NCBI GenBank assembly: GCA_017743475.1
Contig: JAGHYV010000002.1
Coordinates: forward strand, 13,844 to 77,843
Reading direction: 5' to 3'
DNA length: 64,000 nt
Origin: Roseiflexus sp.
GTDB taxonomy: Bacteria > Chloroflexota > Chloroflexia > Chloroflexales > Roseiflexaceae
Shown: positions 9,218 to 34,409 of the stretch, one piece after another
Numbering within the stretch: the stretch's first letter is position 1
Layout: every line of letters starts with the position of its first letter
Notes under the pieces: model-generated
Database searches by the model: none
What the model was told of the DNA's origin: nothing
Seen by the model: the letters and a program-made list of their open reading frames with translations, nothing else
Program-made: the position numbers and the translations under genes

Positions 9218-9241
9218 ACCGCAGTTGTGGGTGCGTATCAA

Positions 9242-9902: not shown

Positions 9903-10052
9903 GTGAATGTCAGCAGCGAAGGAGTAAGAGCCAGACCTGAGGGTGTGGAAGCCCTGATGCTGCGCATTCAGGTGTGGGTAAGAGCACGCCCCGTTTCCCC
10001 CTTCCTTACACAAGCAAGTTCTCTGACAAGCCTCTGCGCGCTATCTCCCGGT

Positions 10053-10142: not shown

Positions 10143-10174
10143 AACATCACTCAACAACACACGTCTCGCCGCAA

Positions 10175-10744: not shown

Positions 10745-11024
10745 AGATGGGTGTCCTTACTGTCTCCTTGTCATCCTGATAGTCCCGGATGCGGTCGCCC
10801 TCCCGGAAGACGAGCGAGGTGAGGTTTGGTACGCCTGCCATCAACCTGTCCACGATGAGTGGATAACCGATGCCGGGGTGCAAATGATCTTGTCTATCAG
10901 TTGCAATTTCTACTATACCCGATTGAGGAAACACATGTCAAGGAAATGAACCAGAAAAACGATACGGTCTATCGATGCAGCGTACCGATCACCAGCACGC
11001 TGCATCGATGCATCGGAACTGCAG

Positions 11025-12224
11025 CTACTTGAGGAAGAAGGTGGTATACAGCCCAACCAGGATGAAGAAGGCGAACCACGCGCCCAGCATACCGGTGGCA
11101 ATCGACCCAAATTGTTCTACGCGCGGCGACACGCTGCCATCGCGCTTCGTCCCGCCTGATTGATACAACACCAGCGCCAGGTACGTGACGACGGCAACGC
11201 CGACGATGGTGGTTACGCCAAAAATCAGGATCGACCCCCAATCTATGATGTAGGGGTACTCAGATACGCGATACCCAAACCGTTCCAGAGAGACTGCACG
11301 GATGACTTCCCGCACAACGCCGACCGTCATCAGCGATGCAAACCAGACCAGCAAGGTACGCGGTGCGTGCTGCATCGGTTGCTTCAAGAAGAAGAAATAG
11401 CTGGTCAGCGCCAGTCCAAGACTCGTCAGCGCAACCCCAAGTGGTATGCCGATGCCGAACTCGACGCCTTCCGTCGCTGCCCATAGCAGGCCGGCCAGTG
11501 TATACAGCGGACTGACGACCAGACCGATCAATCGTCCTTGCCTGGCGACCCACTGCATAAAGGGCGCATCCTCTTCAATACGCCGGAAATACCATGCGAA
11601 CAGGGTGAGCACCACTGCCAGGCTCAAGCCCGCCTGCAATGGTAGAAGAAACGTCAGGCGCGGGATATTCCATGAATGGAAAACAACACCGCGCGTGTCG
11701 ATAACACCGTTCGGCGCGTACCATTCCATCCAACGCTCAGGACGGATCGACACCGATGCCAAGACGTGCATCACCCATCCGGCGAAAAAGAGCAACACGA
11801 ACGACGCCACTGCCGACCAGAGCAGTTTTCCGTCGGCGCTCCCTTTGAGATAAAACAGATACGCCAGACCGTAGCCACCCATCATCACAAAGATGAAACT
11901 CACCGACCAGAAACCGGTCAAGGCATTGCTTGCGTACCAGAGAGGGTCATGGATCGTCTGCACGAAGAGCAGCGGCGCAATTCCCGTCACAATGCCGAGT
12001 CCAACCGCGTTGGGCGTCAGCCGTGCTGCGACGCGCCCCAACCGCAGGCGATAGTCAGTCGGGCGCAGGAAACAGGCAATCGAGCACGCGCTCGACCCAA
12101 GCGCCAGGGTTACAAAGAAGATGTGCAAGACCCATGTCACCACCAGCAATACCTGTAATGCAGGCGGATAGAACGGTGCACCCAGCGGGTCGCGCATCCG
12201 TTCGAGCATATCGCCAATGTCCAT
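11025..12224 (-). CDS. CydA-like membrane subunit (second paralog) of a cytochrome bd-superfamily complex
   Basis: ~10 TM segments with WVLHIFFVTLALG, NAVGLGIVTGIAPLLFVQ and REVIR, echoing CydA helices; directly downstream of 12228-13634. Confidence 0.65.
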   Translation of the reverse strand: MDIGDMLERMRDPLGAPFYPPALQVLLVVTWVLHIFFVTLALGSSACSIACFLRPTDYRLRLGRVAARLTPNAVGLGIVTGIAPLLFVQTIHDPLWYASNALTGFWSVSFIFVMMGGYGLAYLFYLKGSADGKLLWSAVASFVLLFFAGWVMHVLASVSIRPERWMEWYAPNGVIDTRGVVFHSWNIPRLTFLLPLQAGLSLAVVLTLFAWYFRRIEEDAPFMQWVARQGRLIGLVVSPLYTLAGLLWAATEGVEFGIGIPLGVALTSLGLALTSYFFFLKQPMQHAPRTLLVWFASLMTVGVVREVIRAVSLERFGYRVSEYPYIIDWGSILIFGVTTIVGVAVVTYLALVLYQSGGTKRDGSVSPRVEQFGSIATGMLGAWFAFFILVGLYTTFFLK

Positions 12225-18820: not shown

Positions 18821-20104
18821 CTAAGATGCTTGCTCTGCGATCAACTGGTTATAGAGCGCTTCGAGATGAACGGTCAGCGTTTCAGCCCGATACCGATCAA
18901 AGACTTCGGCGCGTCCGGCAGCAGCAAGTCGCGTTCCCAGGGCGCGGTCATTCAGCAGACGTATAAGCGCCTCTGCCAGTGCTTCGACATGACCGTAGGG
19001 AACCAGTAAACCAGTTCGTTCGTGGCTGATAACTTCGTTACCTGCCATCACGTCGGTGGTCACTACCGGCGCTCCGGCAGCCATAGCCTCAATCAGCGGT
19101 ATGCCAAAGCCTTCATATCGGCTTGGCGCCGCTACGACGGCTGCATTGTGCAGCAGGCGAATCTTTTCATGCTCGCTTACCGGTCCGACGATATCCAGAT
19201 GATTGGTTACGCCGCCGACTGCTGCAATGTGCCGCAGGTCGGCTTCACCGTTACGGTTGTGACTCACGAACATAAAACGGGCTGTCGGCGCTTCACGCAA
19301 CACGAGCGGCATTGCACGCGCCAGCAAGTCGTATCCCTTGCGTGGCACTAGCTGCCCAATAAAAAGCACTAGAGGAGGTCGAGAAGCGACAGGAGGCGGA
19401 GTATGACTGTAGGCGTCCAGATCCACTGCATTTGGCAGCACGCTTATTCGCTTCGGATTGACTCCCAAACGGATAAGAAGGTCGCGCTCGGCATGCGATA
19501 GCGCTATCACACGATCTACACGAAGCAGGGGAGCGTGAATGAGATAGTTGCGCACTGTGCGGTGTGGATGAGCGCCGCGCGCTATCCGAAGCGCCAGCTG
19601 GCGTAGTGTCGTCACTATATTATCGTAGCGAAGCGGCGCTTCCAGAGGACGTTCCCGATCTGATACGAGGTCGCCGTCGTGCAGGAGTCCATGGATGGTA
19701 AGGACAGTGGGAATACGCAGTTGCGATGCAGCCAGCACCGTTTGAAAGCCAAGGAGATTGCGCAGGTGATGCAGGTGAATAATGTCGGGCCGATCTGTTC
19801 CAACCAAGCGTAGCAGCGACTCAGGACCGAAGAAACCCAGGGTTTTCACTCGATGCACGGGTACCGGACCGGGTAACCACTCATGACGGCGTGACTGTCC
19901 AGGATAGCGTCGGTCGAGGTACTCGTGGGCGACGACAGCATGCCCGCGTGCCGCCAGTGTTCGCGCCTGAAGTTGTTCGGGGCGGCCGGGAAACGCAGGA
20001 TCAAAACCATAGGTAGTGACGATCAAAATTCGCATACGGGTTTGTGGTGCAGTGACTGTTCGTTCCAGTTTGATCGGGATAAAGTATGGCGTCCCAGTCT
20101 GCAC
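18821..20104 (-). CDS. Glycosyltransferase family 4
   Basis: MRILIV (alternative start 20035), FIGQLVPRKG and EGFGIPLIEAMAAGAPVV. Confidence 0.9.
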   Translation of the reverse strand: MQTGTPYFIPIKLERTVTAPQTRMRILIVTTYGFDPAFPGRPEQLQARTLAARGHAVVAHEYLDRRYPGQSRRHEWLPGPVPVHRVKTLGFFGPESLLRLVGTDRPDIIHLHHLRNLLGFQTVLAASQLRIPTVLTIHGLLHDGDLVSDRERPLEAPLRYDNIVTTLRQLALRIARGAHPHRTVRNYLIHAPLLRVDRVIALSHAERDLLIRLGVNPKRISVLPNAVDLDAYSHTPPPVASRPPLVLFIGQLVPRKGYDLLARAMPLVLREAPTARFMFVSHNRNGEADLRHIAAVGGVTNHLDIVGPVSEHEKIRLLHNAAVVAAPSRYEGFGIPLIEAMAAGAPVVTTDVMAGNEVISHERTGLLVPYGHVEALAEALIRLLNDRALGTRLAAAGRAEVFDRYRAETLTVHLEALYNQLIAEQAS

Positions 20105-20110
20105 ACCCTG

Positions 20111-21250
20111 TCAGCTTTGTATTGTTGATGCACGATTGACATGTGTTCCGCGTACTGCCGCGTGATACGCCGCTTCTACCCGATCCGCCACAGCAGACCA
20201 CGCGAATTGTGCCGCCCAACCGGGTGCAGCGTCAGCCATAGCTCGTCGGCGCTCCGGGTCGTCGATCAGGGAACGCACGGCTGCTGCCAGTGCAGCCGGA
20301 TCGCGTGGCGGCACAAGAAGTCCAGTGCGCCCTTCGTCGATCACTTCGGGGAAACCGCCAAAGCGTGATGCGACGACCGGCAGCCCGCACGCCTGCGCTT
20401 CAATCAGCCCAATGCCGAACGTCTCGCTAGCAAAGCTGGTGGCGAGCAGGAGATCGGCTGCGGCGTAGATTGACGGGAGACGTTCACGTGGCAATGCTCC
20501 CAGGAAGCGTACCCGCTTTGCCAGTCCCAATTCCTGCGCCAGTCGCTCCAGGTCGGCGCGGGTTTCGCCATCACCAACGATCATCAGATGCGCCCGCGGA
20601 ATCTCCCGTAAGGCGTGGAGAGCAACATCTACCCCCTTCCAGGGTTGCAGCCGACCGACCCACAGAAGGAGCGGCGTTCCGTCGGTGCGAACGATGTCTG
20701 GATCAGGCGCTGTTGGGCGAAACAGGCTTGTGTCGATTCCGTTGAAGACGACGGTCGGCTCAAACCCGTAGCGTGCTGCTACGGTACGGGCATTGAAACG
20801 ACTGCACGATACTGCGGCATCGACACGTGGTGCGAGCAGTGTATCGCCCGGATAGAAATCCTCGCCGTGGCATCCCAGCACCACCCGCGCTCCGCCGAAG
20901 CGTCGCGCCAGGAGCGCCGGACCCAGGTCATACGGTTTTTGAATGTGGATGATGTCATATCCGCCAGCGATCAGTTCCGGCAGGGCGGCGATCGCAAGAG
21001 ACAGACGTTCGAGCAGTTTAGCTTCGGCATATGCGCGGTGGAGCAACGGGAGCGCCTGAAACCGGTAGCGATTAATAAACGGGAACATCAGCACCCGAAC
21101 CCCCGGCGCCAGCTCACGACGTTTCCCCACTCCGCCGATGATCGTCACTGCGTGCCCGCGACGCGCCAGTTCGCGCCCCAGGTCCCATACAAAACTTTCC
21201 ACACCGCCGAACCTGGTCGTCGTTGTCAAATTGTAGAGTGCAATGCGCAT
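20111..21250 (-). CDS. Glycosyltransferase family 4
   Basis: MRIALYNLTTTTRFGGVE, WVGRLQPWKG and ETFGIGLIEAQACGLPVV. Confidence 0.9.
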   Translation of the reverse strand: MRIALYNLTTTTRFGGVESFVWDLGRELARRGHAVTIIGGVGKRRELAPGVRVLMFPFINRYRFQALPLLHRAYAEAKLLERLSLAIAALPELIAGGYDIIHIQKPYDLGPALLARRFGGARVVLGCHGEDFYPGDTLLAPRVDAAVSCSRFNARTVAARYGFEPTVVFNGIDTSLFRPTAPDPDIVRTDGTPLLLWVGRLQPWKGVDVALHALREIPRAHLMIVGDGETRADLERLAQELGLAKRVRFLGALPRERLPSIYAAADLLLATSFASETFGIGLIEAQACGLPVVASRFGGFPEVIDEGRTGLLVPPRDPAALAAAVRSLIDDPERRRAMADAAPGWAAQFAWSAVADRVEAAYHAAVRGTHVNRASTIQS

Positions 21251-21276
21251 AGCTCGACCACCAGCGCCATCAGCCA

Positions 21277-22950
21277 TTACAAGACACGCAGCAACCAGCG
21301 CTGCCCCGGCAGACGCATCTTTGCCAGTTGTTCGCGATCCTGCGGTTCCAGGCCGCCGGTTGCGCGCAGTGCTGCAATGAATGCGCCTGCGCCCAGCAAC
21401 GCCACACATACCAGTAACCCCGCTTCACGCAACCGCAGAAGAATGCTGGCACGTGGCGGAAGTTCCGGCAACAGTGCCGCCATACCTGCCACCAGGAGCG
21501 CCATCACGCCGCTCGCTAACAAGACGCGTAACGTAAACCACCAGGGCCAGCGTAATCCCAGCAACCGATATCCGCTTGCCGTTGTCCACAACCCTGCCAG
21601 GACGCGCGCCAGCCCAAACGCCAGTGCCACGCCAACAATGCCCAGTAGCGGCGACAGCAGGACCAGCAGCGGAACGACTGAGAGTGTCAGCAGGCGCGAA
21701 ATCACAATGACGCGCAACTTTTCGTACACGATCAGCGCGTTGTGCGCCGTAGTCAACATACTTTCCAGAAAGAGACAGGGCACGAGCACCCATACCAACG
21801 ACGCTGCATCGACATACTGCGGCGTCAGCACTGTCAGCACAGGGCGCGCCAGCAGGATCAATCCCACGGCACCGGGGATGAGCAGCAGCACCTGGAGCCG
21901 CGCCAGCGATTGATATGCCCCCAGAAGCGTCCCGCCCTCACCTGCGCGCACCCTGGTGAACAGTGGCACCTGCACCCCGACCATCGGCGTATACAGGTAG
22001 CCGAGCACCATCCCAACCACCGACGCGCCAGCCCAGAGCAGGGCGACATCGCTGATGTCATTCGCCAGAAACACTGCAAACGACTTACTTGCCAGAAAGT
22101 CGGTCACCGTCATGAGGAATGAAACTGCGCAGTAGCGCACGAATCCGGACGGCAGGGCATTGGCAAGCGGCAGGTCAAGCGCTTCCCGTCCGTCATCCGA
22201 CCAGGAGCGGATATCGGATTTCCACAAACGGTACACGTTCCATCCGGCCAGCGCAACGGCGATCGCGGGGGCAACGAACATGGCGATCAGCACGCCGATG
22301 ATTGCGCTACGGTCAGGATCGGGAGTCATCCGGCTGATGAGAATGGCCGCTGCACTCAATAACGGCGGCAACAAACCCGCTGCCAGCGCCACACTGTTCC
22401 AGGCGCGCTGCTCGAAAAAACTGTTCAGGTACGCCATCAGCATGTCGTAGCAGATGCCTAGGAAGAGCATGATCAGGATGGTGAGCATGATGAGCCAGCC
22501 AGACTCATCGATGAACCGTACAAGAGTCATCTGCTCGACAGGTGGAATGCGCTTATCGGCGAGCACCTTGCCCTGCAACTCGTTAATGTAGCGGTCGTAC
22601 CCTGCGATCAATCCGGCGAACACGATCATCAGGACGACAACCTGTGCTGCAAGTACAGCAGAGATCAACCGCAACACCGCGCGCGGTCCGCCGGTGCGGT
22701 TGGTCTCTGGGATGTACTTCGGCAGTGCACGAGTTGTTCCCAGGTCGATCCAGGTGCCCAGTCCATTACTGGCGCCGCTCACCAGCGCCAGCAAGCCGTA
22801 ACTGGTCAACGGCAGCACCGTTAGTTTGAGCAGCGTTGCGACAATTTCGGCGATCATGCGCAGCGGCACAAACACCGCGTTCCATACAACGGCGCGCGAT
22901 ACCTGGCTGGCGAGTGAAGGAGCGCGACTGGTTGTCGGTTCGGTTGCCAT
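21277..22950 (-). CDS. Wzx-like flippase / polysaccharide biosynthesis protein
   Basis: ~14 TM segments, YGLLAL...DLGTTRALPKYIPE, located inside a glycosylation locus. Confidence 0.75.
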   Translation of the reverse strand: MATEPTTSRAPSLASQVSRAVVWNAVFVPLRMIAEIVATLLKLTVLPLTSYGLLALVSGASNGLGTWIDLGTTRALPKYIPETNRTGGPRAVLRLISAVLAAQVVVLMIVFAGLIAGYDRYINELQGKVLADKRIPPVEQMTLVRFIDESGWLIMLTILIMLFLGICYDMLMAYLNSFFEQRAWNSVALAAGLLPPLLSAAAILISRMTPDPDRSAIIGVLIAMFVAPAIAVALAGWNVYRLWKSDIRSWSDDGREALDLPLANALPSGFVRYCAVSFLMTVTDFLASKSFAVFLANDISDVALLWAGASVVGMVLGYLYTPMVGVQVPLFTRVRAGEGGTLLGAYQSLARLQVLLLIPGAVGLILLARPVLTVLTPQYVDAASLVWVLVPCLFLESMLTTAHNALIVYEKLRVIVISRLLTLSVVPLLVLLSPLLGIVGVALAFGLARVLAGLWTTASGYRLLGLRWPWWFTLRVLLASGVMALLVAGMAALLPELPPRASILLRLREAGLLVCVALLGAGAFIAALRATGGLEPQDREQLAKMRLPGQRWLLRVL

Positions 22951-23801
22951 TACTGCTGTTTGACCAGTCCCAGTTCAAACATGCCGGTGTACCAGTCGCG
23001 TTGCAGGCGATACGCAGCACGCTCCAACCCCAGGCGACGCAGTACGGCTCGCGCGATGCGGTGCGTCGGTTTCGGGCTGTAGAGCGTTCCTTGTAGCAGT
23101 TCTTCTTCGCGGAGATCGCGCACGCTGAATCCGCAGCGCAATGCAAGCGTAGCGAATGTCTGGTACTCGAAATAGTGCATGTCACTCAACCGCTGCATAT
23201 CACGAAACGCAGCGCCCTGCTTGCTGCGCCCGCAGCGTGCGATCAACCATTCGGCAAGCGGACGCGGCATCCAGTTGATCCCCGGCATATGGTAGTGCGG
23301 ATCGATCCAGGCTCGTCGGTTGATCACCGTTATCAGCGCCACTCCGCCAGGACGCAACACCCGCGCAATCTCGCGCAATACCTGTTCCGGCGACTGGACA
23401 TGCTCAATGACATCCCAGCATACCACGGCATCGAATGCTGCATCAGGCAATGGCAACGACTCACCCGCGGCGTTGATAACCGGCAGGTGCAGATGGTAAC
23501 GCGCCGCGCGCAGCATCATGATCCGACAGTAGGCTGGATGATATTCGCTGGCGATGACCTTTGCGCCACGCAGGGCTGCTGCAACCGCAAAGCCGCCCAT
23601 GCCCGCACCGAGATCGAGCAATCGTACTCCATCGACCCGTCCGGCAATCTGTTCCAGTCGCGCAAGTCGTTCGCTCTGATACGCTTCCTGATTGATGCGC
23701 CGCTCGCGCCAGCGCGCAAAGTCGCGCCGCCAGCGCATATGTTGCAGCCAGGGATCAATCGCCTGCTCGAGTTCAGTTGGTGCAGCAGGTGGTTGGGTCA
23801 T
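22950..23801 (-). CDS. Class I SAM-dependent methyltransferase
   Basis: LLDLGAGMGG, AAGESLPLPDAAFD and VIEHV...LRPGG. Confidence 0.88.
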   Translation of the reverse strand: MTQPPAAPTELEQAIDPWLQHMRWRRDFARWRERRINQEAYQSERLARLEQIAGRVDGVRLLDLGAGMGGFAVAAALRGAKVIASEYHPAYCRIMMLRAARYHLHLPVINAAGESLPLPDAAFDAVVCWDVIEHVQSPEQVLREIARVLRPGGVALITVINRRAWIDPHYHMPGINWMPRPLAEWLIARCGRSKQGAAFRDMQRLSDMHYFEYQTFATLALRCGFSVRDLREEELLQGTLYSPKPTHRIARAVLRRLGLERAAYRLQRDWYTGMFELGLVKQQ

Positions 23802-25975
23802 TATCGTTTGGATTCCAACACATAGTCGGCAATGCGGACCTTCAACGCTGCAATGCTCAACTCACGCCGGGATTGCGGGTCAAACGTCGTCGGCGCGTGC
23901 AGGCGCAATTGGGTCTGTCCCGGCGGCACGGTCAATCCTGTGCGATAGGTGCGCACCGGGCGCTGCACGTCCCAGTGCGCGATCAGGCGCTGATCATGCC
24001 ACAGTTCTACCGGGCGCGGCGTCTCGTAAGACGCCAGGGTCAACGCCAATGTCATATGGATTGGCGTATCATACGGGTTGACCAGCCAGAGCGTGTTGTC
24101 GGCGCTGCCCCAGCGGTGCAGACCGTTATCGTTGCGCTCTACGCTGTCCCATCCTTTGCCTGCATAAACGAAGGGACGGCAGGCGTTGGCGAACAGGGGC
24201 AGTTCGTACCAGCGATACTGCGCATCCTCATACTCTGGTGTCGGCACGTGCCCGATCAACATCCTGAGCGTCTCCGCGACCTGTTCCTGCTCACGCGCCG
24301 TTGTCAGGTCGGTGCGCACTACCACGTGGCGCACCGGCGCGAAACACTGCATCGCTCTGAGCGTGGACGGATCGAGCGGTACAACATCTTGCTGCAATGC
24401 TCGCATCGTCCCGATAGTGTACAACAGCGGCATGTTAAAGCTGTCGTATGCCGGTCGCCGCGCGATGAACCCGCCGATGATCGGTTGACCATGCACCATC
24501 TGACTCCGTAATGTGCGGCTCGTTTCGAGCACATCGAGCGGCAGGTCGGCGACGGCGCCGGGGCGCGCTGCAATTTGTTCATAAACTGCCGGGCGCTCCA
24601 ACGGCAGGAAGACGCGCTCTGGCGGGAGCCAGAGTTCGAACAACCCTGCCATCACTGCCCCTGCGATTGGCAGCATGCGCCAGGCATCTGGCGTCCCCTG
24701 GCGCAACTGCGCCAGCCCCTGTGCCGCTGCTATGCTCATCACCATTAGCACCGGCGCGATAAACAGCGCTGGCTTGCGCGCCGTCCCAAAGAGCGGAAGC
24801 CGATCAAGCAGCGCATATGGCATCGGGATGCCCGTATCCTTCCCCAGCACGTGCAAACCGGGACCCATCGCCAGCACCCAGAGCACGATGGCTGTGAGTG
24901 CCAGGTGCCGCTCGCGCCGCCAGACGGTTCGTGCGCCGAGAATCGCCAGCGCCATCAGGGTCCATCCCGCCGGAACGTACCAGACGCTCGGAGTAAAGTG
25001 TTCGGCTATCGGACGCATCCACTGCTCGACCTGCGCTCCCCACAGCGGGTTGTACACATTCGGAAAGAATAATCCGAACAGGTCGACCGACGAGTTGTAG
25101 ACATATAGTTCCCGGATGGCATCGCGCGTCTGGTGACCTATCGGTAATACGTCACGCCGCATAAGCATCCCGGCGAGAAACGGCGCCAGCAGGATCAGCG
25201 TTCCCATCGCAAACAGTGCATAACGGCGGGCGAGCATCCGTCGCTCACGAACCGCTGCGAACCGTGCAGCCATCCATACAATCGTCAGCACGCCGCAGAT
25301 CGACGCCCAGTACCAGTCGGAAAGCACGACCAGTGCGGCGATTGCCGCAGCGCACGCAATGCGCCAGCGCTCCCCGCCGCGATCCAGCAGCGCCAGGGCG
25401 TAGATATAGAACGGGATCCAGTGCAGGCTGAACAGGTTAAGGTGGCTGTTCTGCAACTGTGCGATGTGGAACGGTCCAAGCGTAACCAGCACACCGCACG
25501 CCAGCGCCTCCCAGAATCCGCGCACGTAGTGATAGGTCAGCAGAAAGACGCCAAACCCGGTCAGCGCAAAACCCAGCAGCACCGCCGTGTTAAACGCTGC
25601 GACCGGACCCGCCAGCAGATAGATCGGCAGCGTAAGCACCGCATTTGGCGCGCCCAGCGTTTGCACATACAACTGTACGCCGTCCGGGTAGAAGAGCAGG
25701 TCGGTCCAGAACGGGTTGATGCCGTTCAGGATCGCCTCGCTCACCCACCAGAGATGCCACAGATGCAATCCAGCTTCTTCGCTGCCAGCAAAGTCGAATC
25801 GCCCTGGAGCGCCGTCAATCCCGCCGAACAGAAGTCGGTCGAAGTGCAACGCCAGGGGCCAGGTGACAATCAGCGCCAGCAGCACGTAGCATCCGAGCGC
25901 CAGCGCATAGATGGCGGCGATGCGGCTGCTGGAAGGAGCCGCCCGCTCAGCAGACGAGCGCGTCGACCGCTTCAT
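23801..25975 (-). CDS. YfhO-like GT-C membrane protein with C-terminal GxGW..E..RW module
   Basis: WHLWWV, LFYPDG, GPFHIA and PIIGGFIARR; paralog of 5216-7357. Confidence 0.75.
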   Translation of the reverse strand: MKRSTRSSAERAAPSSSRIAAIYALALGCYVLLALIVTWPLALHFDRLLFGGIDGAPGRFDFAGSEEAGLHLWHLWWVSEAILNGINPFWTDLLFYPDGVQLYVQTLGAPNAVLTLPIYLLAGPVAAFNTAVLLGFALTGFGVFLLTYHYVRGFWEALACGVLVTLGPFHIAQLQNSHLNLFSLHWIPFYIYALALLDRGGERWRIACAAAIAALVVLSDWYWASICGVLTIVWMAARFAAVRERRMLARRYALFAMGTLILLAPFLAGMLMRRDVLPIGHQTRDAIRELYVYNSSVDLFGLFFPNVYNPLWGAQVEQWMRPIAEHFTPSVWYVPAGWTLMALAILGARTVWRRERHLALTAIVLWVLAMGPGLHVLGKDTGIPMPYALLDRLPLFGTARKPALFIAPVLMVMSIAAAQGLAQLRQGTPDAWRMLPIAGAVMAGLFELWLPPERVFLPLERPAVYEQIAARPGAVADLPLDVLETSRTLRSQMVHGQPIIGGFIARRPAYDSFNMPLLYTIGTMRALQQDVVPLDPSTLRAMQCFAPVRHVVVRTDLTTAREQEQVAETLRMLIGHVPTPEYEDAQYRWYELPLFANACRPFVYAGKGWDSVERNDNGLHRWGSADNTLWLVNPYDTPIHMTLALTLASYETPRPVELWHDQRLIAHWDVQRPVRTYRTGLTVPPGQTQLRLHAPTTFDPQSRRELSIAALKVRIADYVLESKR

Positions 25976-25979
25976 AACG

Positions 25980-27977
25980 TTACTTGCTTTCCGTAGCGGT
26001 GTAATCTGCAAGCTGCACCTTTAATGCCGTAACACTTAACTCACGCTGCGACTGCGGGTCATACGTCGTCGGCGCACGCAGGCGCAATCGGGTTTGTCCC
26101 GGCGGTGCGGTCACTCCTATGCGATAGGTGCGCATTGGGCGCTGCACGTCCCAGCGCGCGATCAGGCGTCGATCGTGCCACAGTTCCACCGGGCGCGCCG
26201 TCTCGTAAGACGCCAGGGTCAACGCCAGCGTCATATGGATTGGCGTATCATACGGGTTGACCAGCCAGAGCGTGTTGTTGGCGCTGCCCCAGCGATAGGC
26301 TAAGGAACCGGCATATTCAGTAGCATACCAGCCTCTTCCCAGCGCAACCCATGGACGGGAGCGATCAAGAGTTGATTCTTCGGGTCGATCTCTGTGGTTG
26401 CATTCTATTACCATGCCTAATTGCCCTGGTGATGTAATACGCTTGCAACTTAAATCAGGATAGCGACTCTCCAGGAGACGCTGTACGTTTGCATCATTTG
26501 TAAACACGTATATGGGCTTCTTTGATCGAATCCAGCTCTTCTTTATTTCTAGGTTAGGAGATTTATGCCATTCTTTTAATGTTTTTCCGTAAATTTCTAA
26601 CCAATAGTCGAGATATCTCGGCATTGCCATCTTATCCCACTTGTGAATTATGAAGATAGATTCCTCCTGGCAAATCTCAGCAAACTCTTTCATAAGTGCG
26701 GATGGTTTATAATAATTCTGGTAATAATTGTTTGTAATGTCTTGTAAATGCCTTCCAGATTCTAAATTTGATAGCAGGATTCTATCGCGATATACTACTG
26801 AAAAAGTAAATGAGATGATAGCGGCAAGAAAGATCAATACGAGAGAAATAGAAGTAAATCGAACATCGAAACCTTTGATTGCTTCTTTCAGAGATATACC
26901 CCCGATCATAGAGAAAGGGATGACTAATGGAATAAATGTTCGGTCAAACGGTTTGTCACCCCTAAGAGCACTCAATAAGAATGGAAGCACCATTAATATC
27001 AGAAGTAGGTAAAATCCACTGTAATCCTGATTTTTATCCCTAAAAATCTTTATAAGTCCATATAATACTGGTAAGAGTAGTAACCATCGTTTTGAGATGA
27101 GATGTCCCAAAAATGCAGGCATAAGTTCTGTTATTGTGCTCAAGTTGGGCATTCCTGATGTTCTTGTCATATTATTGTCGATAACTTTTGGAAGGATAGG
27201 GATATACCAGACTGTAGCGACGGCGATGCCCGACACAACCATGACCGCCAGCTCTATCTCGCGGTTGGATGTTAATCTTCTGTCAGGTTGGGCATATTTA
27301 TTTCTAGACCGCGAAAACAGATACCTCGATAACCAATAAATAAAAATAGGTGCGGTAACGTAGATATTTGATGGTATGGTGTAAAAGAGCAAAGAAGTTA
27401 GTGCCACGACCAAAAACCCACTTATTCTACTTCCACTCCTATAATAATGCAAGTTATAGTATAAGATCATTCCGAGCAGTGTCATGCTCAAAGTATAGCC
27501 TCTGACCTGGACAGTAAAGTTTACAGAAGGCAGGGTTGATCCCAAGATAATAACTGCAAGAAATCCCGCTAACGGATCAAAAAAGTCTCTTACAGTCCTA
27601 TAAACATATACAAACGTCAAAAATGTGTAAAACAACATTAGTATGCGAATTTTCCAGGGTTCTCTGAGCAGGTCGAAATCATCGATGCCAAGCCCGTACA
27701 GGTAAAGGTGGTTTAGTATGTTGGCGAAAATATGATTATTTGGTGCGCGATAGTCGGTTACAATCGTTGAGATCGGAACAAACACAAAATGATGTAGTGT
27801 ATAAATCTCGTCATACCAGAAATCGAGATTGATGTATGCAGCAACGACATAAATAAGCCATGGTAGCGCAGCAGCGCATGCTATCAGCGTCCACGCAAAC
27901 TCTGAGCGAGAAGACAAACTCTTTGCAGTTTTGTCTGATAATGCGAGTAGGGCGGACATGCCTGTATGCGAATTCAT
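25980..27977 (-). CDS. Chimeric GT-C (PMT/ArnT-like) membrane protein: low-GC body plus duplicated native C-terminal module
   Basis: DFWYDEIYT, NNHIFA and VQVRGYTL motifs. Sampled lines 26521 and 27001 are 32% and 30% GC. The last ~105 codons closely match those of 23801-25975. Confidence 0.8.
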   Translation of the reverse strand: MNSHTGMSALLALSDKTAKSLSSRSEFAWTLIACAAALPWLIYVVAAYINLDFWYDEIYTLHHFVFVPISTIVTDYRAPNNHIFANILNHLYLYGLGIDDFDLLREPWKIRILMLFYTFLTFVYVYRTVRDFFDPLAGFLAVIILGSTLPSVNFTVQVRGYTLSMTLLGMILYYNLHYYRSGSRISGFLVVALTSLLFYTIPSNIYVTAPIFIYWLSRYLFSRSRNKYAQPDRRLTSNREIELAVMVVSGIAVATVWYIPILPKVIDNNMTRTSGMPNLSTITELMPAFLGHLISKRWLLLLPVLYGLIKIFRDKNQDYSGFYLLLILMVLPFLLSALRGDKPFDRTFIPLVIPFSMIGGISLKEAIKGFDVRFTSISLVLIFLAAIISFTFSVVYRDRILLSNLESGRHLQDITNNYYQNYYKPSALMKEFAEICQEESIFIIHKWDKMAMPRYLDYWLEIYGKTLKEWHKSPNLEIKKSWIRSKKPIYVFTNDANVQRLLESRYPDLSCKRITSPGQLGMVIECNHRDRPEESTLDRSRPWVALGRGWYATEYAGSLAYRWGSANNTLWLVNPYDTPIHMTLALTLASYETARPVELWHDRRLIARWDVQRPMRTYRIGVTAPPGQTRLRLRAPTTYDPQSQRELSVTALKVQLADYTATESK

Positions 27978-28024
27978 CGAGGTCTTCTTTTCAAAACAAT
28001 GCTGTATGCGATATTCTCTGGCGC

Positions 28025-30124
28025 CTACGGCGTGACCTGCACGTCAGTAATTGCCACTCCTCCGTACCACGGCGCCATCTCCAGGTCGAGCAGTCCTGTT
28101 GCACTTGTGAACCACACTGTCAGTTCGGGATTGTGCTCACATTCGCGTATACCTGATAGGGAAATATGCATCTCTTGCGGCGCTCCGGTTAGCGTGATCC
28201 GCTCATGGATATTCCAGTTATCAAGCGAGATGTCAACCATACGCCCGGCAGGTCCGTGCATACGCACCACCAGCGTCCCGCATCCGCCGCGCACCCGCAC
28301 TCTTCCCTCTCCCAATGTCCAGCGCCCAACGGTGAGATCAGGAGTGGCAGGCGCGAACCCGGCGTAGAACCCGAGCGCAGCAGGATCGCCGGGAATGACG
28401 CGCGATGGAGCGCTCATGTGCTGCGCATTCCATGCCCATTCCAGCAGATCGTTGCCGGTGCGCCAGTAGCCGTCGATAGCGCGGAGCGCCGCTGCCGCTT
28501 CCGCCGGATTGTCGAGCACAGCAGCAGTGATCGCGCGCATTGCCTGTGCATACAGACTGCGGCGTTCCATTGACGCTGCCAGACGGTAGAGTTCCAGCGC
28601 CCGCTCATTATCGCCCTGCGCCAGGTAGAGATCGGCAAGGTCGATCAGGCGCAGCGGGTTGTCCGGGTTGGCGTCGTATGCCAGCGTCAACAGCGATTCA
28701 GCCCGTCGCAGATCGCCCGCGTCGAGCGCAGCCCGCCCTGGTGCAGCATACCATATGCCTGCACTCCACGGAATGTACTGTGTGCTGACGATCAGCGCCA
28801 GGAACACCAGCGATCCACCCAGCGCCGCGTAACTGCGCCGGTCACGCAGGAAGCGAGCAGGTTGCCGCCAGAGCGCCGGTAGCCTGATCAGCGCATATGC
28901 TGCGAATGGCAGAACTGTCGCCACAATCGGCAGGCGCAGGCGGGGATGTCCAATTGTCAGCGCTGCCAGCAGGGTCGCCAGCCCGATCCACAGCAACGTC
29001 GGCGTGGCGCGCACGGGTTGCGGTATAAAGCAGAACCCGCCGATTGCCAGCAACATTAGTACAATGTACTGCACATCCGCCAGTATGGTCAGCTCCAGCC
29101 GATATTCACCCGCATTCTGTACGATTGGTGCGCCGCGTGAGTCGATGGAAATGACATCGCCAACCGCATAACTGCGCGTTTGAAGCGCGTAGAGCGATGC
29201 GATTTTGAAGCGCATACGGGTGAGAAACCGCACTGGATCGTCACGAATGATATCCCACGCCATGTGCAGGGCAAGCGCCTGCCGGTCGGCAAGGTTCGGA
29301 ACCGCCGCCAGGCGTGCCTCGCCTGCTGCCTGTTCGGCATCACTGCGCACGGTGCCGTACCACATACTGATGCCGCCGTTCGTGTCGCTTACGATCAGGC
29401 GACTATGCACTAGATAATTCCGCCCCACCCACGGTCCAATGACCAGCATTGCGCCCAGCAATAGGAGGATCGCCGGATGATGCCAGCGCCATACCCGATA
29501 CCCGTCGGACTGAGCACGCCATGCTATCAATGCCGCCGCTAGCGGAATCAGATACACGCCAACCGCGCGCGTCAGTGCTGCAAGCGCCAGGATCACGCCA
29601 GCGCCAAACGCCATTCGCCCGCTTTTGCGATCAATCGCGTCGTTGAGCGCCGTCAGACCGGCAACCAGAAGAGTTATGAACAGTGCCTCGGCGTAGAGCG
29701 AACTGGCATACGATGCCAGCGGAATAAAGAGCGCTGCCAGCAACGCTGTGACCAGACCAGTGATACGTCCGAAGAGATGCGCGCCGAATGTGTAGAACGC
29801 CAGCACCCCGACACTCAAGATGCACGCCTGAAGCAGCAACGCACCGGCGACGTTCATCCCGGCTGCTGGCAACAGGAGCGCCAGAAATGCTGGATAGACC
29901 GGCGGACGCAGCCACTTCCCGGTATCGTGGTAGCCGCCATGCAGGATATGGATGGCTGCGCGATAGTACTCTTCCGGATCACCAGGCGGCACAGCGCCAG
30001 AGCGCGCCTGGATCCACCAGAACCAGAGACGCATGGCCAGCGCCAGCACAATCACGGCAACCAGAGCGATCCGGCTGGCAGCCAGCAGAGCGCGCGCTTT
30101 CCGCAGCGTTTGATGGTCGAGCAT
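28025..30124 (-). CDS. ArnT/PMT-like GT-C membrane glycosyltransferase with TPR-like region
   Basis: GDPEEYY, RPPVYP, LYAEALF and PWVGRNY; TPR-like AESLLTLAYDANPDNP...LADLYLAQGD. Confidence 0.78.
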   Translation of the reverse strand: MLDHQTLRKARALLAASRIALVAVIVLALAMRLWFWWIQARSGAVPPGDPEEYYRAAIHILHGGYHDTGKWLRPPVYPAFLALLLPAAGMNVAGALLLQACILSVGVLAFYTFGAHLFGRITGLVTALLAALFIPLASYASSLYAEALFITLLVAGLTALNDAIDRKSGRMAFGAGVILALAALTRAVGVYLIPLAAALIAWRAQSDGYRVWRWHHPAILLLLGAMLVIGPWVGRNYLVHSRLIVSDTNGGISMWYGTVRSDAEQAAGEARLAAVPNLADRQALALHMAWDIIRDDPVRFLTRMRFKIASLYALQTRSYAVGDVISIDSRGAPIVQNAGEYRLELTILADVQYIVLMLLAIGGFCFIPQPVRATPTLLWIGLATLLAALTIGHPRLRLPIVATVLPFAAYALIRLPALWRQPARFLRDRRSYAALGGSLVFLALIVSTQYIPWSAGIWYAAPGRAALDAGDLRRAESLLTLAYDANPDNPLRLIDLADLYLAQGDNERALELYRLAASMERRSLYAQAMRAITAAVLDNPAEAAAALRAIDGYWRTGNDLLEWAWNAQHMSAPSRVIPGDPAALGFYAGFAPATPDLTVGRWTLGEGRVRVRGGCGTLVVRMHGPAGRMVDISLDNWNIHERITLTGAPQEMHISLSGIRECEHNPELTVWFTSATGLLDLEMAPWYGGVAITDVQVTP

Positions 30125-30131
30125 CGTACTG

Positions 30132-31763
30132 TTATGGATTGTCCGGCGTCTGACGCATCACCAGCAGATCCTGTTCTTCGGCAATCACCTGCCAGCGATC
30201 TGACTCACGCAGGCGCTGAACGAAATCGCGGTGACGATCGGTGCGCAATGCTGCGGCGCGTGTATCGATGAAGAGGTACTCAGCGCGCTCGATCGGCGGA
30301 AACGACTCATCGGGCGGCACGTAATAGATGAAACGGCGCGGCATCATCCGTGGCGCGAGAAACGACGTGACTCCCAGCGATGCATCAGGCGGGATCAATG
30401 CTGCCAGGCGCTCCATCGCTGCCAGTCGTTCAGGGGTCTCTCGGTAGAGCACCGTTGTCGCCACCGGATTGCGATATGCCAGATTGGTTGCTGCCACAAT
30501 GCCAATCACGCCGATCATCAGCACATATGCTGTACGTGATGCGCGATTGTTGCGCCGAATCACACTGACGCCGCGCTGGTCTATCACTGTGCTTCTTGCC
30601 TGCCACCACCCCCACAACCGCGCAGCGCCGATGATGGCAGCAAGTATCAGACCAGGAATAACGAGCGCCTGATACTGTTCACGTACGGTGATCTGAAACG
30701 GGCGCAGCGAGAGCAGGTTCATCGCCAGCGGCGGCGCCGCCAGCAGCGCAACATCGGGTGCAAGCAACGGCAGCAATGCCAGCGGTAGCAGCATAAGGAA
30801 CAGATATTCCACTTTGTCCGGCGTTAGCATCAGGCGCAGCACATCAACAGGACGACTGACAATCGTCCAGAGAATAGCGCCTGCGCTGTCGCCGAGATGC
30901 GAATAGTAGGCAAGCTGCGGGCTTTTACCGGGCCAGATTTCGGTATAATCGCCCTCTGTCACCCCGCCAATGTCCCCTTCTCGCATCTGATAGTCTGGGC
31001 GATAGAACGACGGCACAACGACACTTGTCGAGAGATGGAACCATGCCAGTCCGATGAGAACCGGCGGCAGCACCCAGCGCCACCCGACACGCCACAGCGC
31101 TGCCAGGAAGCCAAACATGGTCACCACCAGCGACACATCGGTGCGGGTTGTCAGCGCGAGTGCCAGCAATCCCACGTATGCGACCCAATCACGTGCATTC
31201 GCCCGTCCATTCGCAGCACGCTGCAAAAAAAAGAATGCGCCCAGCAGCGCCGGAATTGCCAGCGTGCGCGGTTGCCATGGAGCGCTCATCGTCACAAACC
31301 AGAGCGAGGGGTAGAGCAGATACACGCCTGCCCATCCCAGCCCGGCAAGACGCGAACCGCCAAAGCGATCCCGCGCAATCCCATACACTGGCAGCGCACC
31401 GAGCGCCATAAAAAGCGCCTGAAAAAAATTGAGCGTCAACGCTGAGGGAAACAGCGCATAGAACGGAACGACCAGCAGGATTGCCGGAATGAAATCCATC
31501 CCCCACAGATGATCGGTGTGGCGATAGTGTGATATTTCAAGAAAGCGTCCCTGCGTCGTATTCCAGATCGACTGCTGATAGTCGATCTGATCATATCCCT
31601 GCGCCCAATGGAGATACTTGAATGTCAGACCAAAGAAAAGAATGGCGATGTACAGCGCAATGAGCGCCGCCAGCGTCAGACCTGCCCGTCGCTCGATCGT
31701 TGCGAGTAGCTGCACAATGCCTGTTTTGAAATATTCGTGGTGTGATGCAAGCGCTCGTGTCAT
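30132..31763 (-). CDS. DUF2079-family membrane protein (GT-C-like)
   Basis: YDQIDYQQSIWNTTQGRF, DFIPAILL and ITVREQY. Confidence 0.75.
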   Translation of the reverse strand: MTRALASHHEYFKTGIVQLLATIERRAGLTLAALIALYIAILFFGLTFKYLHWAQGYDQIDYQQSIWNTTQGRFLEISHYRHTDHLWGMDFIPAILLVVPFYALFPSALTLNFFQALFMALGALPVYGIARDRFGGSRLAGLGWAGVYLLYPSLWFVTMSAPWQPRTLAIPALLGAFFFLQRAANGRANARDWVAYVGLLALALTTRTDVSLVVTMFGFLAALWRVGWRWVLPPVLIGLAWFHLSTSVVVPSFYRPDYQMREGDIGGVTEGDYTEIWPGKSPQLAYYSHLGDSAGAILWTIVSRPVDVLRLMLTPDKVEYLFLMLLPLALLPLLAPDVALLAAPPLAMNLLSLRPFQITVREQYQALVIPGLILAAIIGAARLWGWWQARSTVIDQRGVSVIRRNNRASRTAYVLMIGVIGIVAATNLAYRNPVATTVLYRETPERLAAMERLAALIPPDASLGVTSFLAPRMMPRRFIYYVPPDESFPPIERAEYLFIDTRAAALRTDRHRDFVQRLRESDRWQVIAEEQDLLVMRQTPDNP

Positions 31764-31882
31764 ATGCTCTGAACTCTCGCCTGTTCCTCGCCTTACACTG
31801 TTCACGCCTCGCGCTGCCCCCTCGATGGACCCCGCTGCCGGTACGGGCGCAGCAGCGTTGCGCCCCGATACATCGTCGTCCC

Positions 31883-31975
31883 ACGTTCAACGTGCAATGT
31901 TCAACCTTCAACCCCTCGCGCCTTCATCCCCTCGCGCCTCGTCCCCTCGCGCCTTTCGCCTCCGCCTCGCGCCTC
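31883..31975. repeat. Heptamer tandem (ACGTTCA-type x4) followed by CCCCTCGCGCCT repeats
   Basis: acgttca acgtgca atgttca accttca, then three CCCCTCGCGCCT units; intergenic. Confidence 0.7.
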
Positions 31976-31981
31976 ATATCC

Positions 31982-34327
31982 TCACACTACCGGCGACCGC
32001 AGGATGCGAATCACCCAGAGATCGAGCGCCGTCACCAGCGTAAACAGGTAGATTGTCGCAACCAGCGCTTTTCCCCACCACCCGCGTCGCCAAAAGCGCT
32101 CAGCGTAGATCGCCCAGCAGAGACAAATGGCAGGCACGATATAGAACAACTGCTTGTCAACCATCGATACCCGATATCCCACCAGCATGAACAGGGTTCC
32201 GACCGAAAACCACGCTGCCAGCATCACCCACAGCAGCGGGCGCTTGCGCAACGCAACAAAACCCGGAACGACAAAAGCGAGCGGAATGAGCAAACCGTAG
32301 TATAAAAAGCCGTCCGGTCGCATATCGTACCGCAGGTGCCGCCAGAAAGAGAAAAGGTAATCACTAAACGGCGGACGCACCACACCGACGCTTTCTGGAC
32401 CACTTGTTGCCAGACTCAGCATATATGGTATGGTTCGCTCGACAATCGGTGAAATATACTGGCCATAGTAGATCAGCGTTGCCGCTCCCAGCGCCACGAC
32501 CAGTGAGAGTGCGACAGGGCGAAGCGGCTTTCGGTCGATCCTCACTGGTGCGATGAGCGCGATTCCAATGAAGCAGACGATGAACACAATGTGGAAGACT
32601 GCCATCACCGTGTAGAACAGGAGTGTAATCACCGTTAGCACGGTAAGCAGAGCAAACGGACCCCATTCGTGGAGACGGGGATACAGTGCGACCATGACCG
32701 TCGAGGTGACCAGTGTCCACCACATGCCGGATGTCGTCGGGATGTTGCCCCACGAATGCAATAGAAAGGTAACCGGTGTGACAGCATAGATCAGCGCTGC
32801 GAAGATCGTCGCGCGATGGCTCAACCTCGCCTTGCGCGCCAGAAGCGCGATCAGAAAGACGCGACTGTTGTCGAGCAGGGCGCTGAAAAGGTTCGCGCTG
32901 GTTTCGAGCGACCATGGAAAGAGTGCAAAAACCGTCGCAAAGAGGTGAAAAAATGGTGAATAGGGAATGACAGGGCGATTCGGTCCCCACTCATTGATCG
33001 GCATTACCGACTCTGAGAACGCGCCGGGAAGATACATTTCCGACCAGTGTCCATTGAGGATCCAGCGTACGCGATCCATGTGCCAGCCGACGTCGATAGC
33101 GCGCATATAGGGGAAGAGCAATCCGCCGCCTTTCAGCCAGAGACCGACGAGAAAGATAACCAGCAGTGCATATCGCACTGCCGGTTCAAGAGGGGCGTCG
33201 AGTTTACGGAAGATCCAGTCCACACCGCGATCTGCCACAGGCGTCAGCACAAGGGTGAAAAGCATAAACCATGCCAGCGGCTCCAGGAACAGTCCAGTCG
33301 GGTAGCGGTACGCTATCAGCGCCCACGCGCCGATCAGCGCCACCATGATGCTCGCACTGCATGCAATCCATGCCGGAACCCGCGCTACGCGAAGGGCGCC
33401 GTACATGCTGGCGACAATAGTCAGTGCTGGCAACACTGCACTCCACGGCGGCAGCGTCACACCAGGCGCGCGGGTGAGCGGCGTTACTGCCACACGCTCT
33501 AGCGACACCCCTAGCGGGCGCGGATCGCGGTACGGATTCGCCGAGATGTCCAGATTCAGGTTTCCGTTGTTGAGGGTGCGCGCTGGCGCGATCAACAGAT
33601 AGCGGCGCATACCCGGCGTCTCAGGCAGGGCAGCGATCATTTCTCCATTGGCGAAGACGCGTGCATCAACTGCGCCGCCATCTGGATGCGCTACCAGTGC
33701 CCGCAGTTCTACGCGCCAATCGCCGTGTCCTAATGCAGGAAGTGTGATCGTCGAGCGTTCGCTTGTCCAGCGATAGGTCAGCGCTCTGGCGATTTCAGCG
33801 TCGATCAGGCGCACTGGCGGTACTTCGAGCGTGCGGTCCGGGATCGCTTCGATGCGCAATCGCATACCGCCAGACAGATCCATGTCGTCGGGCAGGAGCA
33901 GGCGAAAACGCCGGGCACCGCCGCGATCATTGAGGGTGTCAACTCGACGGTCGTTGGCATAGACAGCAATCAGACGGCGTGGATGAACTGTATCGGGCTG
34001 CCAGTCATCCAATGTTAGCGTCACCATGCGTGCATCTTCACGCAATGGAGTCGCAACAACAACCTCGTTTGAACCGGGAAGCGCAGCAACCCGCATGAGA
34101 ACCGTCTGTGCGGTAAACTCACGCCCGTGCATATCGCGAAGGTAGGGATAGTCAAGACGGGTGCCAATATCGAGCGTTACCTGCGGTTGCGCAGTGTAGG
34201 CGACCATCAGTGCGATCAGGACGCCAAGCGCTGTCACTGCCAGTGGCAACCCTGGTTGCCAGCCATGCGGATTGATGAACGCTCTTGACCAGGCGACCGG
34301 AGCGCGTGTTGCTTTCGGAGCAGCCAA
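31982..34327 (-). CDS. Large membrane protein (extracellular beta modules plus GT-C-like TM region)
   Basis: N-terminal TM, a domain with YRWT and RPLGV motifs, then ~13 TM segments with RAIDVGWH. Confidence 0.7.
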   Translation of the reverse strand: MAAPKATRAPVAWSRAFINPHGWQPGLPLAVTALGVLIALMVAYTAQPQVTLDIGTRLDYPYLRDMHGREFTAQTVLMRVAALPGSNEVVVATPLREDARMVTLTLDDWQPDTVHPRRLIAVYANDRRVDTLNDRGGARRFRLLLPDDMDLSGGMRLRIEAIPDRTLEVPPVRLIDAEIARALTYRWTSERSTITLPALGHGDWRVELRALVAHPDGGAVDARVFANGEMIAALPETPGMRRYLLIAPARTLNNGNLNLDISANPYRDPRPLGVSLERVAVTPLTRAPGVTLPPWSAVLPALTIVASMYGALRVARVPAWIACSASIMVALIGAWALIAYRYPTGLFLEPLAWFMLFTLVLTPVADRGVDWIFRKLDAPLEPAVRYALLVIFLVGLWLKGGGLLFPYMRAIDVGWHMDRVRWILNGHWSEMYLPGAFSESVMPINEWGPNRPVIPYSPFFHLFATVFALFPWSLETSANLFSALLDNSRVFLIALLARKARLSHRATIFAALIYAVTPVTFLLHSWGNIPTTSGMWWTLVTSTVMVALYPRLHEWGPFALLTVLTVITLLFYTVMAVFHIVFIVCFIGIALIAPVRIDRKPLRPVALSLVVALGAATLIYYGQYISPIVERTIPYMLSLATSGPESVGVVRPPFSDYLFSFWRHLRYDMRPDGFLYYGLLIPLAFVVPGFVALRKRPLLWVMLAAWFSVGTLFMLVGYRVSMVDKQLFYIVPAICLCWAIYAERFWRRGWWGKALVATIYLFTLVTALDLWVIRILRSPVV

Positions 34328-34409
34328 ACCTGACGACCTTATACCATACCAGCGAAATAATCCAGCGCATTATAGCACAAGCAGAATGGGGTATACTTTG
34401 AACTGTCTG

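Follow-up and report, generated by a model that had tools for sequence, protein, structure and literature searches.

A two-part GT-C-type gene in a strain-variable slot of a Roseiflexus surface-glycan operon

Gene B and the slot it occupies

The window analysed here is a 64-kb stretch (64,000 nucleotides) of a Roseiflexus sp. contig (JAGHYV010000002.1, positions 13,844 to 77,843; phylum Chloroflexota), and the contigs nearest to it come from hot-spring metagenomes and from metagenome-assembled genomes (MAGs) of Roseiflexus sp. It contains an operon of surface-glycan type, entirely on the minus strand, with the gene order E-D-C-[B]n-A-MT-F-GT4-GT4, in which gene B (25980-27977, minus strand) is a confirmed open reading frame (ORF) of 665 amino acids (aa) that models as a membrane glycosyltransferase of GT-C fold, weakly PMT_2/GT39-like in sequence, with a C-terminal beta-sandwich. 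We consider it probable that B represents one of the cassettes that can fill a strain-variable slot of this operon, and that it is an old fusion whose tail has been homogenised with those of its tandem neighbours by gene conversion.

The two parts of B differ in guanine-plus-cytosine (GC) content. A low-GC cassette (26364-28020, minus strand), delimited by GC content and change points and made up of a 47-nucleotide (nt) intergenic spacer plus the B body (codons 1-537), has 39.5% GC and is the sole low-GC island of the window, in which all other 1-kb bins lie at 52-64%. Maximum-likelihood change points fall 5 nt past the gene C stop and at codon 538 of B (~26364), which is also where homology to gene A begins. 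All three codon positions of the body are low (GC1 0.42, GC2 0.36, GC3 0.41), and FYMINK residues account for 33% of it, compared with 17-20% in neighbouring genes. The C-terminal domain of B (C-dom, or tail; residues 538-665, 128 residues; 25983-26363, minus strand) is a GC-rich (0.60) beta-sandwich resembling carbohydrate-binding modules (CBM) of the CBM6/35 type, and its composition is like that of other genes of the genome. The first-pass annotation, made from the sequence alone, had given the body 30-32% GC; this is true of some 60-nt lines (5 of the 26 in 26341-27900 have 32% or less, the minimum being 28%) and overstates the low GC of the whole, since the mean is 39.6%, with 63% in line 25861.

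The GC-rich tail repeats the end of gene A (23801-25975, minus strand), which AlphaFold and Foldseek model as a 724-aa membrane glycosyltransferase of GT-C fold with a C-dom of its own (23804-24187). Positions 26002-26294 of B align without gaps to 23823-24115 of A over 293 nt at 88% DNA identity, the only long direct repeat in 20000-32000, and at the protein level residues 538-665 of B match residues 609-735 of A with 72% identity (E = 5e-57). The longest identical run between them measures 49 nt, a length reached in 0 of 5000 permutations. Outside this core the sequences have diverged, over the last ~22 nt of the two genes and over the first ~25 codons of C-dom. The two aligned segments, both on the minus strand, are the gene-conversion tract: the sites of concerted evolution described below cluster in the B copy, and the A copy, placed by the repeat match, has its upstream edge near 24123.

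B is a functional gene under purifying selection and not a decaying one, with a dN/dS (the ratio of nonsynonymous to synonymous divergence) of 0.16-0.17, similar to that of the neighbouring genes, and with coverage by metatranscriptome contigs across its GC junction. Its dS is about twice that of the flanks in two of three comparisons, an excess that suggests older allelic lineages.

Comparison loci are labelled L001-L032, the window WIN, and sequencing runs X; the genome scan did not include R. castenholzii DSM 13941 and Roseiflexus sp. RS-1. Gene C on one side and A-MT-F on the other are syntenic around a slot that holds 0, 1 or 2 copies of B, in agreement with the earlier expectation that the locus varies among strains. 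One B is present in the window, L001, L002 and L004-L009, and two in tandem are present in L010 and, as B1-B2, in L011. In L003 a frameshifted class-III copy (psiB; 8025-9993) lies upstream of an intact class-II B. L016 retains a B remnant (1720-2216) between intact C and A genes, in which an internal deletion of ~1.3 kb joins body residues ~12-124 directly to tail residues ~74-128. L013 (Roseiflexus sp. H69_722) has no B, its A start following the C stop after 52 nt, and its A gene (9864-12100) is split over three reading frames, reflecting either a pseudogene or MAG assembly errors. A metagenome contig of run X9 likewise joins the end of C to the 5' part of A, skipping B, and in that run B has about one-third of the flank depth. 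The deletion of the A body that the direct repeats had been proposed to allow was not seen: among 25 related loci and 8 metagenome or metatranscriptome runs surveyed for deletions and other variants, none lacked the A body, and the variants found were loci without B, with a B remnant or with two B genes. Contigs of several DNA and RNA runs lose their match to the window at 24123 and at 28063 (38 nt inside the 3' end of C), and one contig each in X5 and X16 joins 24123 to 28063 with only 22-32 nt on one side; this joint may reflect either a block of divergent haplotype or faulty alignment.

The bodies in the slot fall into four classes that are 40-48% identical among themselves, and their order differs by genome (III-II in L003, II-IV in L011). 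Patches of 80-94% identity interrupt C, the 3' half of B and A in strains whose operons are otherwise mostly 100% identical; B, for example, is 100% identical in the window and L001, against 92% for A and 93% for C (window 21000-34400, also compared with L004). These discrete patches indicate that homologous recombination often shuffles the locus through imports smaller than a gene. The slot shows several features of an O-antigen-type cassette, namely a GC content well below that of the genome between conserved flanks, presence/absence variation and divergent allele classes. The literature searched held nothing specific on variation of Roseiflexus glycan loci.

Origin of the fusion and exchange between the tails

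Distant homologues of the B body (474-621 aa, 24-34% identity, from several phyla) lack the tail and stop exactly at the motif that ends the low-GC part of B. The A-like genes of L012-L032 (Oscillochloris, Viridilinea and other Chloroflexales) all carry C-dom, and these loci are arranged as E-D-A(-A-A)-MT-F, without B or C. B is therefore a GT-C body of a stand-alone type fused with an A-family domain. Two claims of the first-pass annotation are borne out here: B has two parts in composition and in evolution, given the GC break at codon 538 and the tail-less body homologues, and the tail is native, since the domain is found at the C-terminus of A-like Chloroflexales proteins of ~700 aa. In Viridilinea and Chloroflexaceae MAGs (L023 7573-14184; L014; L024; L026) two to three A-like GT-C genes, each with a tail, stand in tandem, and such expansion of tail-bearing GT-C genes is general in the order Chloroflexales.

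The fusion is shared throughout the Roseiflexus group. In L001-L011 the B body has 37-49% GC and the tail 54-62%, with body identities to the window from 100% down to 44%, and a full-length two-tone B is present in all 15 related loci that have the gene, down to body identities of 44-47%. Widespread full-length orthologues of this kind are what the first-pass annotation had itself named as grounds for refuting its reading. Because every B of the group is two-tone, the fusion must be old, and B is best described from these comparisons as chimeric, though anciently so. The acquisition of B was itself likely ancient, as other Chloroflexales lack the gene. A search of 5.8 billion proteins returned no donor of the body outside the Roseiflexus group, the best match being 31-34% identical. 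In three outside homologues of the body, gene GC is near that of the contig that carries it (48/52, 44/52 and 62/63%).

The tails have followed a history of their own. In a neighbour-joining tree with 300 bootstraps they pair by genome and not by body class (B with psiB of L003, 100%; B1 with B2 of L011, 88% bootstrap), so that body and tail phylogenies differ, as had been anticipated. The tandem tails of L003 agree at 385 of 390 nt, with bodies at 42% identity, and parts of the L011 tails are 90-98% identical beside bodies at 56%; overall, tandem tails share 97-98% of their DNA sequence, compared with 42-56% protein identity for the bodies next to them. In the quartet of A and B tails from the window and L002, 20 sites of the core support concerted evolution versus 4 supporting orthology, and most of the other 27 orthology sites lie in the domain flanks (first ~76 and last ~70 nt). 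The grouping of tails by genome, together with these informative sites, points to recurrent gene conversion as the source of the likeness between A and B, and the identity extends to synonymous positions, which selection at the protein level alone cannot explain. The tail core thus evolves in concert by gene conversion over a tract of ~250-300 nt.

The direction of exchange is suggested by the deepest branches. In a deep group formed by L009, L010 and L011, A tails share no more than 37-39% identity with any B tail, whereas A tails of the window group are 59% identical to deep-group B, 39% to deep-group A and 67% to their own B tails, and fall with the B tails in a split with 95% bootstrap support. 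More recent patches run the same way: L004_A and L005_A carry the B-type patch 'GVTA(P/L)PGQTRLRLRAPTTY' where other A genes of the window group have 'GLTVPPGQ...' and L002_A has 'GVTVSPGQ...'. It is rather likely, on these sequence comparisons, that an old conversion from B to A overwrote the A tail with a B-type tail in the ancestor of the window group. This is probably the reverse of the direction assumed at first, when the likeness was taken for a relic of B copying A; the 37-39% identity of deep-group A and B tails, the concerted core and the B-to-A patches all speak against that account.

Predicted folds and neighbouring genes

The AlphaFold model of B (pLDDT, the predicted local confidence score, 83) comprises a GT-C membrane domain, an alpha/beta middle domain and the C-terminal beta-sandwich. 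A Foldseek comparison with PDB structures gave 30 matches at E<=1e-3, all of them GT-C enzymes with template-modelling (TM) scores of 0.45-0.56, including STT3, ArnT, ALG9/12, PglB, Emb, AftD and DPY19. B has the fold that defines the GT-C superfamily, a multi-pass N-terminal membrane domain like that of solved GT-C enzymes. A putative catalytic acidic pair, D56-E57 in the motif LDFWxDE (27807-27812, minus strand), lies after the first transmembrane helix; both residues are invariant in 29 homologues and follow helix 9-35 of the model, and a catalytic role and the sidedness of their loop may be proposed by analogy with known enzymes. By sequence, Pfam PMT_2 (PF13231) matches residues 108-218 of B with 20.5 bits (E=6e-4), under the gathering threshold of 26.1. 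Several B homologues have a precomputed PF13231 match, and two are named 'glycosyltransferase family 39 protein' by NCBI. B is best called a distant PMT_2-like protein and not a curated member of the family. Gene A gave a model with pLDDT 91 and matches to AftD, STT3, DPY19, AglB and ArnT, with CBM6/35 matches for its tail.

The tail of B is all-beta in the model and matches CBM35 structures (2w3j, 2vzp) with TM-scores of 0.53-0.55 on the target and E-values of 3e-3 to 7e-3, and the A tail gives the same range of CBM6/35 matches (TM 0.53-0.55). Local pLDDT is 47-84 for the B tail and above 90 for that of A. A phmmer search of 1.84 billion representative sequences with C-dom found 117 proteins at E<=1e-3, mostly with the domain at residues ~580-715 of 680-760-aa proteins; the B tail thus belongs to an unnamed C-terminal domain family of A-like, ~700-aa GT-C proteins of Chloroflexales. 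C-dom also occurs as 3-6 tandem repeats in 750-1300-aa proteins of other organisms (P0051, P0056, P0072, P0078), which makes it a mobile module whose range extends past the A family. The models suggest that the tail acts like a CBM at most, as sequence does not place it in CBM6/35. The native module that the first-pass annotation saw in the tail is indeed a domain shared with A; the 'targeting' function given to it is better read as that of a carbohydrate-binding-like beta-sandwich.

By analogy with related enzymes, A and B may both add sugars to a wall or surface polysaccharide at the outer face of the membrane. B would most likely act there by transferring sugar from a polyprenyl-phosphate donor to a growing glycan, with its tail holding the acceptor polymer on which A would also work.

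Upstream of B lies gene C (28025-30124, minus strand), encoding a 699-aa membrane protein with PMT_2 (Pfam, 34.1 bits) and TPR (TPR_19) domains, which is syntenic in L001-L011, L013 and L016 and forms the conserved upstream flank of the cassette. B might be suspected to be a diverged paralogue of this gene; BLASTP shows no similarity between C and the B body. Gene D (30132-31805, minus strand) encodes a DUF2079 membrane protein (Pfam E=1e-46), and gene E (31982-34327, minus strand), an ORF for a 781-aa membrane protein, is the first of the conserved block; both are syntenic across Chloroflexales. Directly downstream of A is MT (22950-23801, minus strand), a methyltransferase dependent on S-adenosylmethionine (Pfam Methyltransf_11, E=5e-21), followed by the syntenic gene F (21277-22950, minus strand), an ORF for a 557-aa multi-pass membrane protein for which a flippase-like role is a guess. 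Two genes for cytoplasmic GT4 glycosyltransferases of GT-B fold (18821-21409, minus strand), assigned from their ORFs and from Pfam matches of the identical L001 genes, end the operon. No NCBIfam family matched A, B, E or F, and A, E and F had no Pfam match either.

Gene calls in L001 and other related contigs start A at ATG 25975, 4 nt past the B stop, a spacing that fits translational coupling; a mechanical ORF list has A beginning instead at TTG 26011, overlapping the last 32 nt of B. A scan for promoters and terminators found no convincing terminator between the genes, and promoter-like matches crowded the AT-rich B body, as composition alone predicts. Elsewhere in the window, 16 kb away, a second methyltransferase gene (7431-8366) adjoins an A-like GT-C gene (5216-7438) that is 30% identical to A and has the same tail domain at 31-34% identity. 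This pair (5216-8366, minus strand) may be a second glycan-modifying module.

Competing explanations and meaning for surface glycans

In the reading we prefer, the number of B genes in the slot would be 0, 1 or 2, drawn from four or more divergent classes that all pair an AT-rich body with a GC-rich tail, and the tails of the tandem genes, that of A included, would be repeatedly homogenised over a core of ~250-300 nt. Such homogenisation accounts for the 88% repeat, for the high GC of the tail and for the abrupt change in GC at the edge of the domain. Gain and loss of cassettes would draw their homology from the repeats, and repeats on either side of tandem cassettes could allow B copies to be duplicated and lost. 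Several observations weigh against parts of this account. Gain and loss through the tail repeats is deduced from end states, no recombinant junction having been caught among the loci and runs surveyed; the repeats do not account for the loss of a lone B, as in L013, since none lies on its upstream side; and the shorter side of the joint in the X9 contig without B measures only 56 nt. The loci are for the most part contigs of MAGs or metagenomes, whose frameshifts (L003 psiB, L011 B2, L013 A) could be assembly errors. As regards the direction of conversion, deep-group A tails are the most remote from outgroup A tails (31%, versus 36-39% for B-type tails), so they may owe this to rapid evolution or to replacement, and the 95% support for the split may be raised by long-branch attraction. 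The likeness of the tail to CBMs is weak, with E-values of ~3e-3, TM-scores of 0.53-0.55 and a B-tail pLDDT of 47-84, and the tail matches no Pfam CBM family, nor any other family in Pfam or NCBIfam.

The first-pass annotation had seen in B a recent graft, in which a catalytic domain from a donor of ~30% GC was fused to a fresh duplicate of the C-terminal domain of A, the repeat being the unerased trace of this event. Such a graft would be consistent with a GC break placed exactly where homology to A starts, with a body whose three codon positions and amino-acid usage are all atypical, with body homologues outside Roseiflexus that lack the tail, and with the lack of B at the syntenic site of other Chloroflexales. 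We nevertheless find it improbable, because the fused, two-tone gene occurs at full length in all 15 related loci with B, down to 44% body identity, because the best body match outside Roseiflexus is only 31-34% identical, and because a divergence of 44-92% among orthologues excludes recent lateral copies of one fused gene. Moreover, the tail core evolved in concert after the lineages had split, and in deep-branching relatives the B tail is ~37% identical to the adjacent A tail and was therefore not copied from its present neighbour. Similar tails might also arise, with no exchange of DNA, where purifying or convergent selection acts on a binding surface common to both, and in keeping with this the most conserved stretch (RWGSAxNTLWLVNPYDTPIHMTLALTLASYET) is also kept among orthologues and the dN/dS of the tail is below 0.5. 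Selection of this kind is a very improbable source of the likeness, given that paralogues share runs of 49-84 identical nt that include synonymous positions (0 of 5000 permutations), that orthologous tails of comparable protein identity have a dS of 0.7-1.3, that sites in the core favour grouping within the genome by 20 to 4, and that the L003 paralogous tails are identical at 385 of 390 nt beside bodies at 42%. An assembly artefact, by which the contig of a low-GC organism was mis-joined into a Roseiflexus contig at the shared repeat, might be suspected where the window and most comparison loci are metagenomic and the junction adjoins a repeat. It can hardly be credited here: the same architecture recurs in independent assemblies (L001, L004-L008), more than 10 assemblies made independently in different studies carry the ORF unbroken across the two junctions, and its frame is intact and under purifying selection. 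Contigs of several runs, RNA included, also cross the junction. One of these, a metatranscriptome contig covering 26242-27863, spans the GC junction of B, with DNA carry-over possible, and together with the independent assemblies it argues that B is not an assembly chimera.

The low GC content of the body is a separate question. It is possible, if somewhat unlikely, that it arose by decay in place and not from foreign DNA, so that the GC boundary is a recombination boundary: bodies too divergent to recombine between strains or paralogues would escape GC-biased gene conversion, or selection linked to recombination, and drift to an AT-leaning mutational equilibrium, while the tail recombines and stays GC-rich. 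Recent polarised substitutions in the body comprise 126 from A or T to G or C and 104 in the reverse direction, implying an equilibrium GC of 0.43 against a current 0.38. The flank genes show an excess of changes towards A or T and an implied equilibrium of 0.38-0.50 against a current 0.54-0.61, so that some non-mutational force must keep their GC up. All four body classes are low in GC throughout the genus, a persistence that ameliorating foreign DNA of such age would hardly show; in every allele the change in GC falls no more than ~50 codons from where the converted domain starts; and body divergence stays at a roughly constant ~1.8 times that of the flanks at all depths, as vertical descent would predict. 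On the other side, the substitutions were polarised by parsimony with a distant outgroup (L002), mosaic sequences and deleterious polymorphisms among minority alleles; GC-biased conversion is an assumption of this model as far as Chloroflexota are concerned; the implied equilibrium GC of the tail, 0.49, is not above its current GC; and an ancient acquisition is still needed, since the corresponding locus of other Chloroflexales has neither B nor C. The foreign origin first claimed for the body is unproven, considering that the best outside match is 31-34% identical, outside homologues have a GC close to that of their own genomes, divergence scales with that of the flanks and recent substitutions are near compositional equilibrium.

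Whatever the source of its composition, B as a cassette of a variable slot resembles several known systems. Mycobacterial EmbA/B/C and AftD also combine a GT-C transmembrane domain with soluble domains and a CBM-like beta-sandwich at the end, and are among the Foldseek matches of both A (AftD first, E=8.5e-10) and B (Emb, AftD). The C-terminal domain of EmbC is a lectin-like CBM with proven acceptor binding (PMC3044687). As with Emb, paralogous GT-C genes stand in tandem in a cell-envelope glycan locus. However, A and B are much smaller, have a single tail domain and share only 10-13% identity with Emb and AftD, with no detectable sequence homology; furthermore, Emb tails have no known homogenisation by gene conversion, and emb genes are not known to vary by presence and absence. 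Likeness to ArnT and other PMT_2 enzymes (GT83/GT39-type) consists in the weak PMT_2 match, in ArnT structures ranking second and third (TM 0.53-0.54 on the target) and in the acidic pair after the first transmembrane helix, whereas B lacks the MIR domains of eukaryotic PMTs and has an extra alpha/beta domain and the beta-sandwich tail.

With the low-GC genes of O-antigen and capsule loci (wzx, wzy, glycosyltransferases), B shares the character of a strain-variable, low-GC gene for a membrane protein between conserved flanks, along with alleles that fall into deeply diverged classes and flanks made mosaic by recombination. The low GC of such genes is conventionally read as a sign of foreign origin, and its cause is an acknowledged open point (PMC3715488). 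Unlike those loci, the present one belongs to a Chloroflexota phototroph, its variable gene encodes a GT-C enzyme and not Wzx or Wzy, the GC step falls within one ORF at a domain boundary, and a flank of the cassette is a repeat that codes for the neighbour's domain. As in tuf genes and repeat-flanked cassettes of polymorphic toxins or pilins, paralogous segments are more alike within a genome and tract edges are sharp, and the repeats could mediate gain and loss; here, however, conversion is limited to one domain of two otherwise non-homologous genes, and silent donor cassettes and a dedicated recombinase are absent. Variable low-GC glycan cassettes, CBM-tailed GT-C enzymes and tandem paralogues that evolve in concert are each known; the unusual point is that a GC step inside an ORF, at the edge of a domain and present across the genus, occurs together with conversion of a single domain between otherwise unrelated neighbours.

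For Chloroflexota phototrophs of hot-spring mats, these results mean that a hypervariable surface-glycan slot exists like those in the O-antigen and capsule loci of pathogens. Such a slot suggests that mat populations are under pressure from phages or predators, which may be the agent of selection upon it. The locus is also a clear case of gene conversion confined to a single domain of two adjacent genes that are otherwise unrelated, by which a sugar-binding-like tail stays uniform as the catalytic bodies diversify. The modelled folds also provide a fold-level assignment, a GT-C enzyme with a CBM-like tail, for two protein families that have no curated profile. As the GC break lies inside one reading frame and is conserved across the genus, B offers a compact test case for the long-standing question whether the AT richness of variable polysaccharide genes stems from a foreign origin or from the lack of a GC maintenance linked to recombination. 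We would put forward as a doubtful proposal that the GC step inside B is a natural marker of recombination-dependent GC maintenance, with the tail held at ~60% GC by continual conversion against neighbouring genes and other strains. If this were true, the low GC of variable glycan genes, perhaps of O-antigen clusters generally, would come from allelic isolation and not from foreign origin, and conversion would keep successive GT-C enzymes alike in their acceptor-binding tails, which would let new cassettes stay compatible with the pathway.

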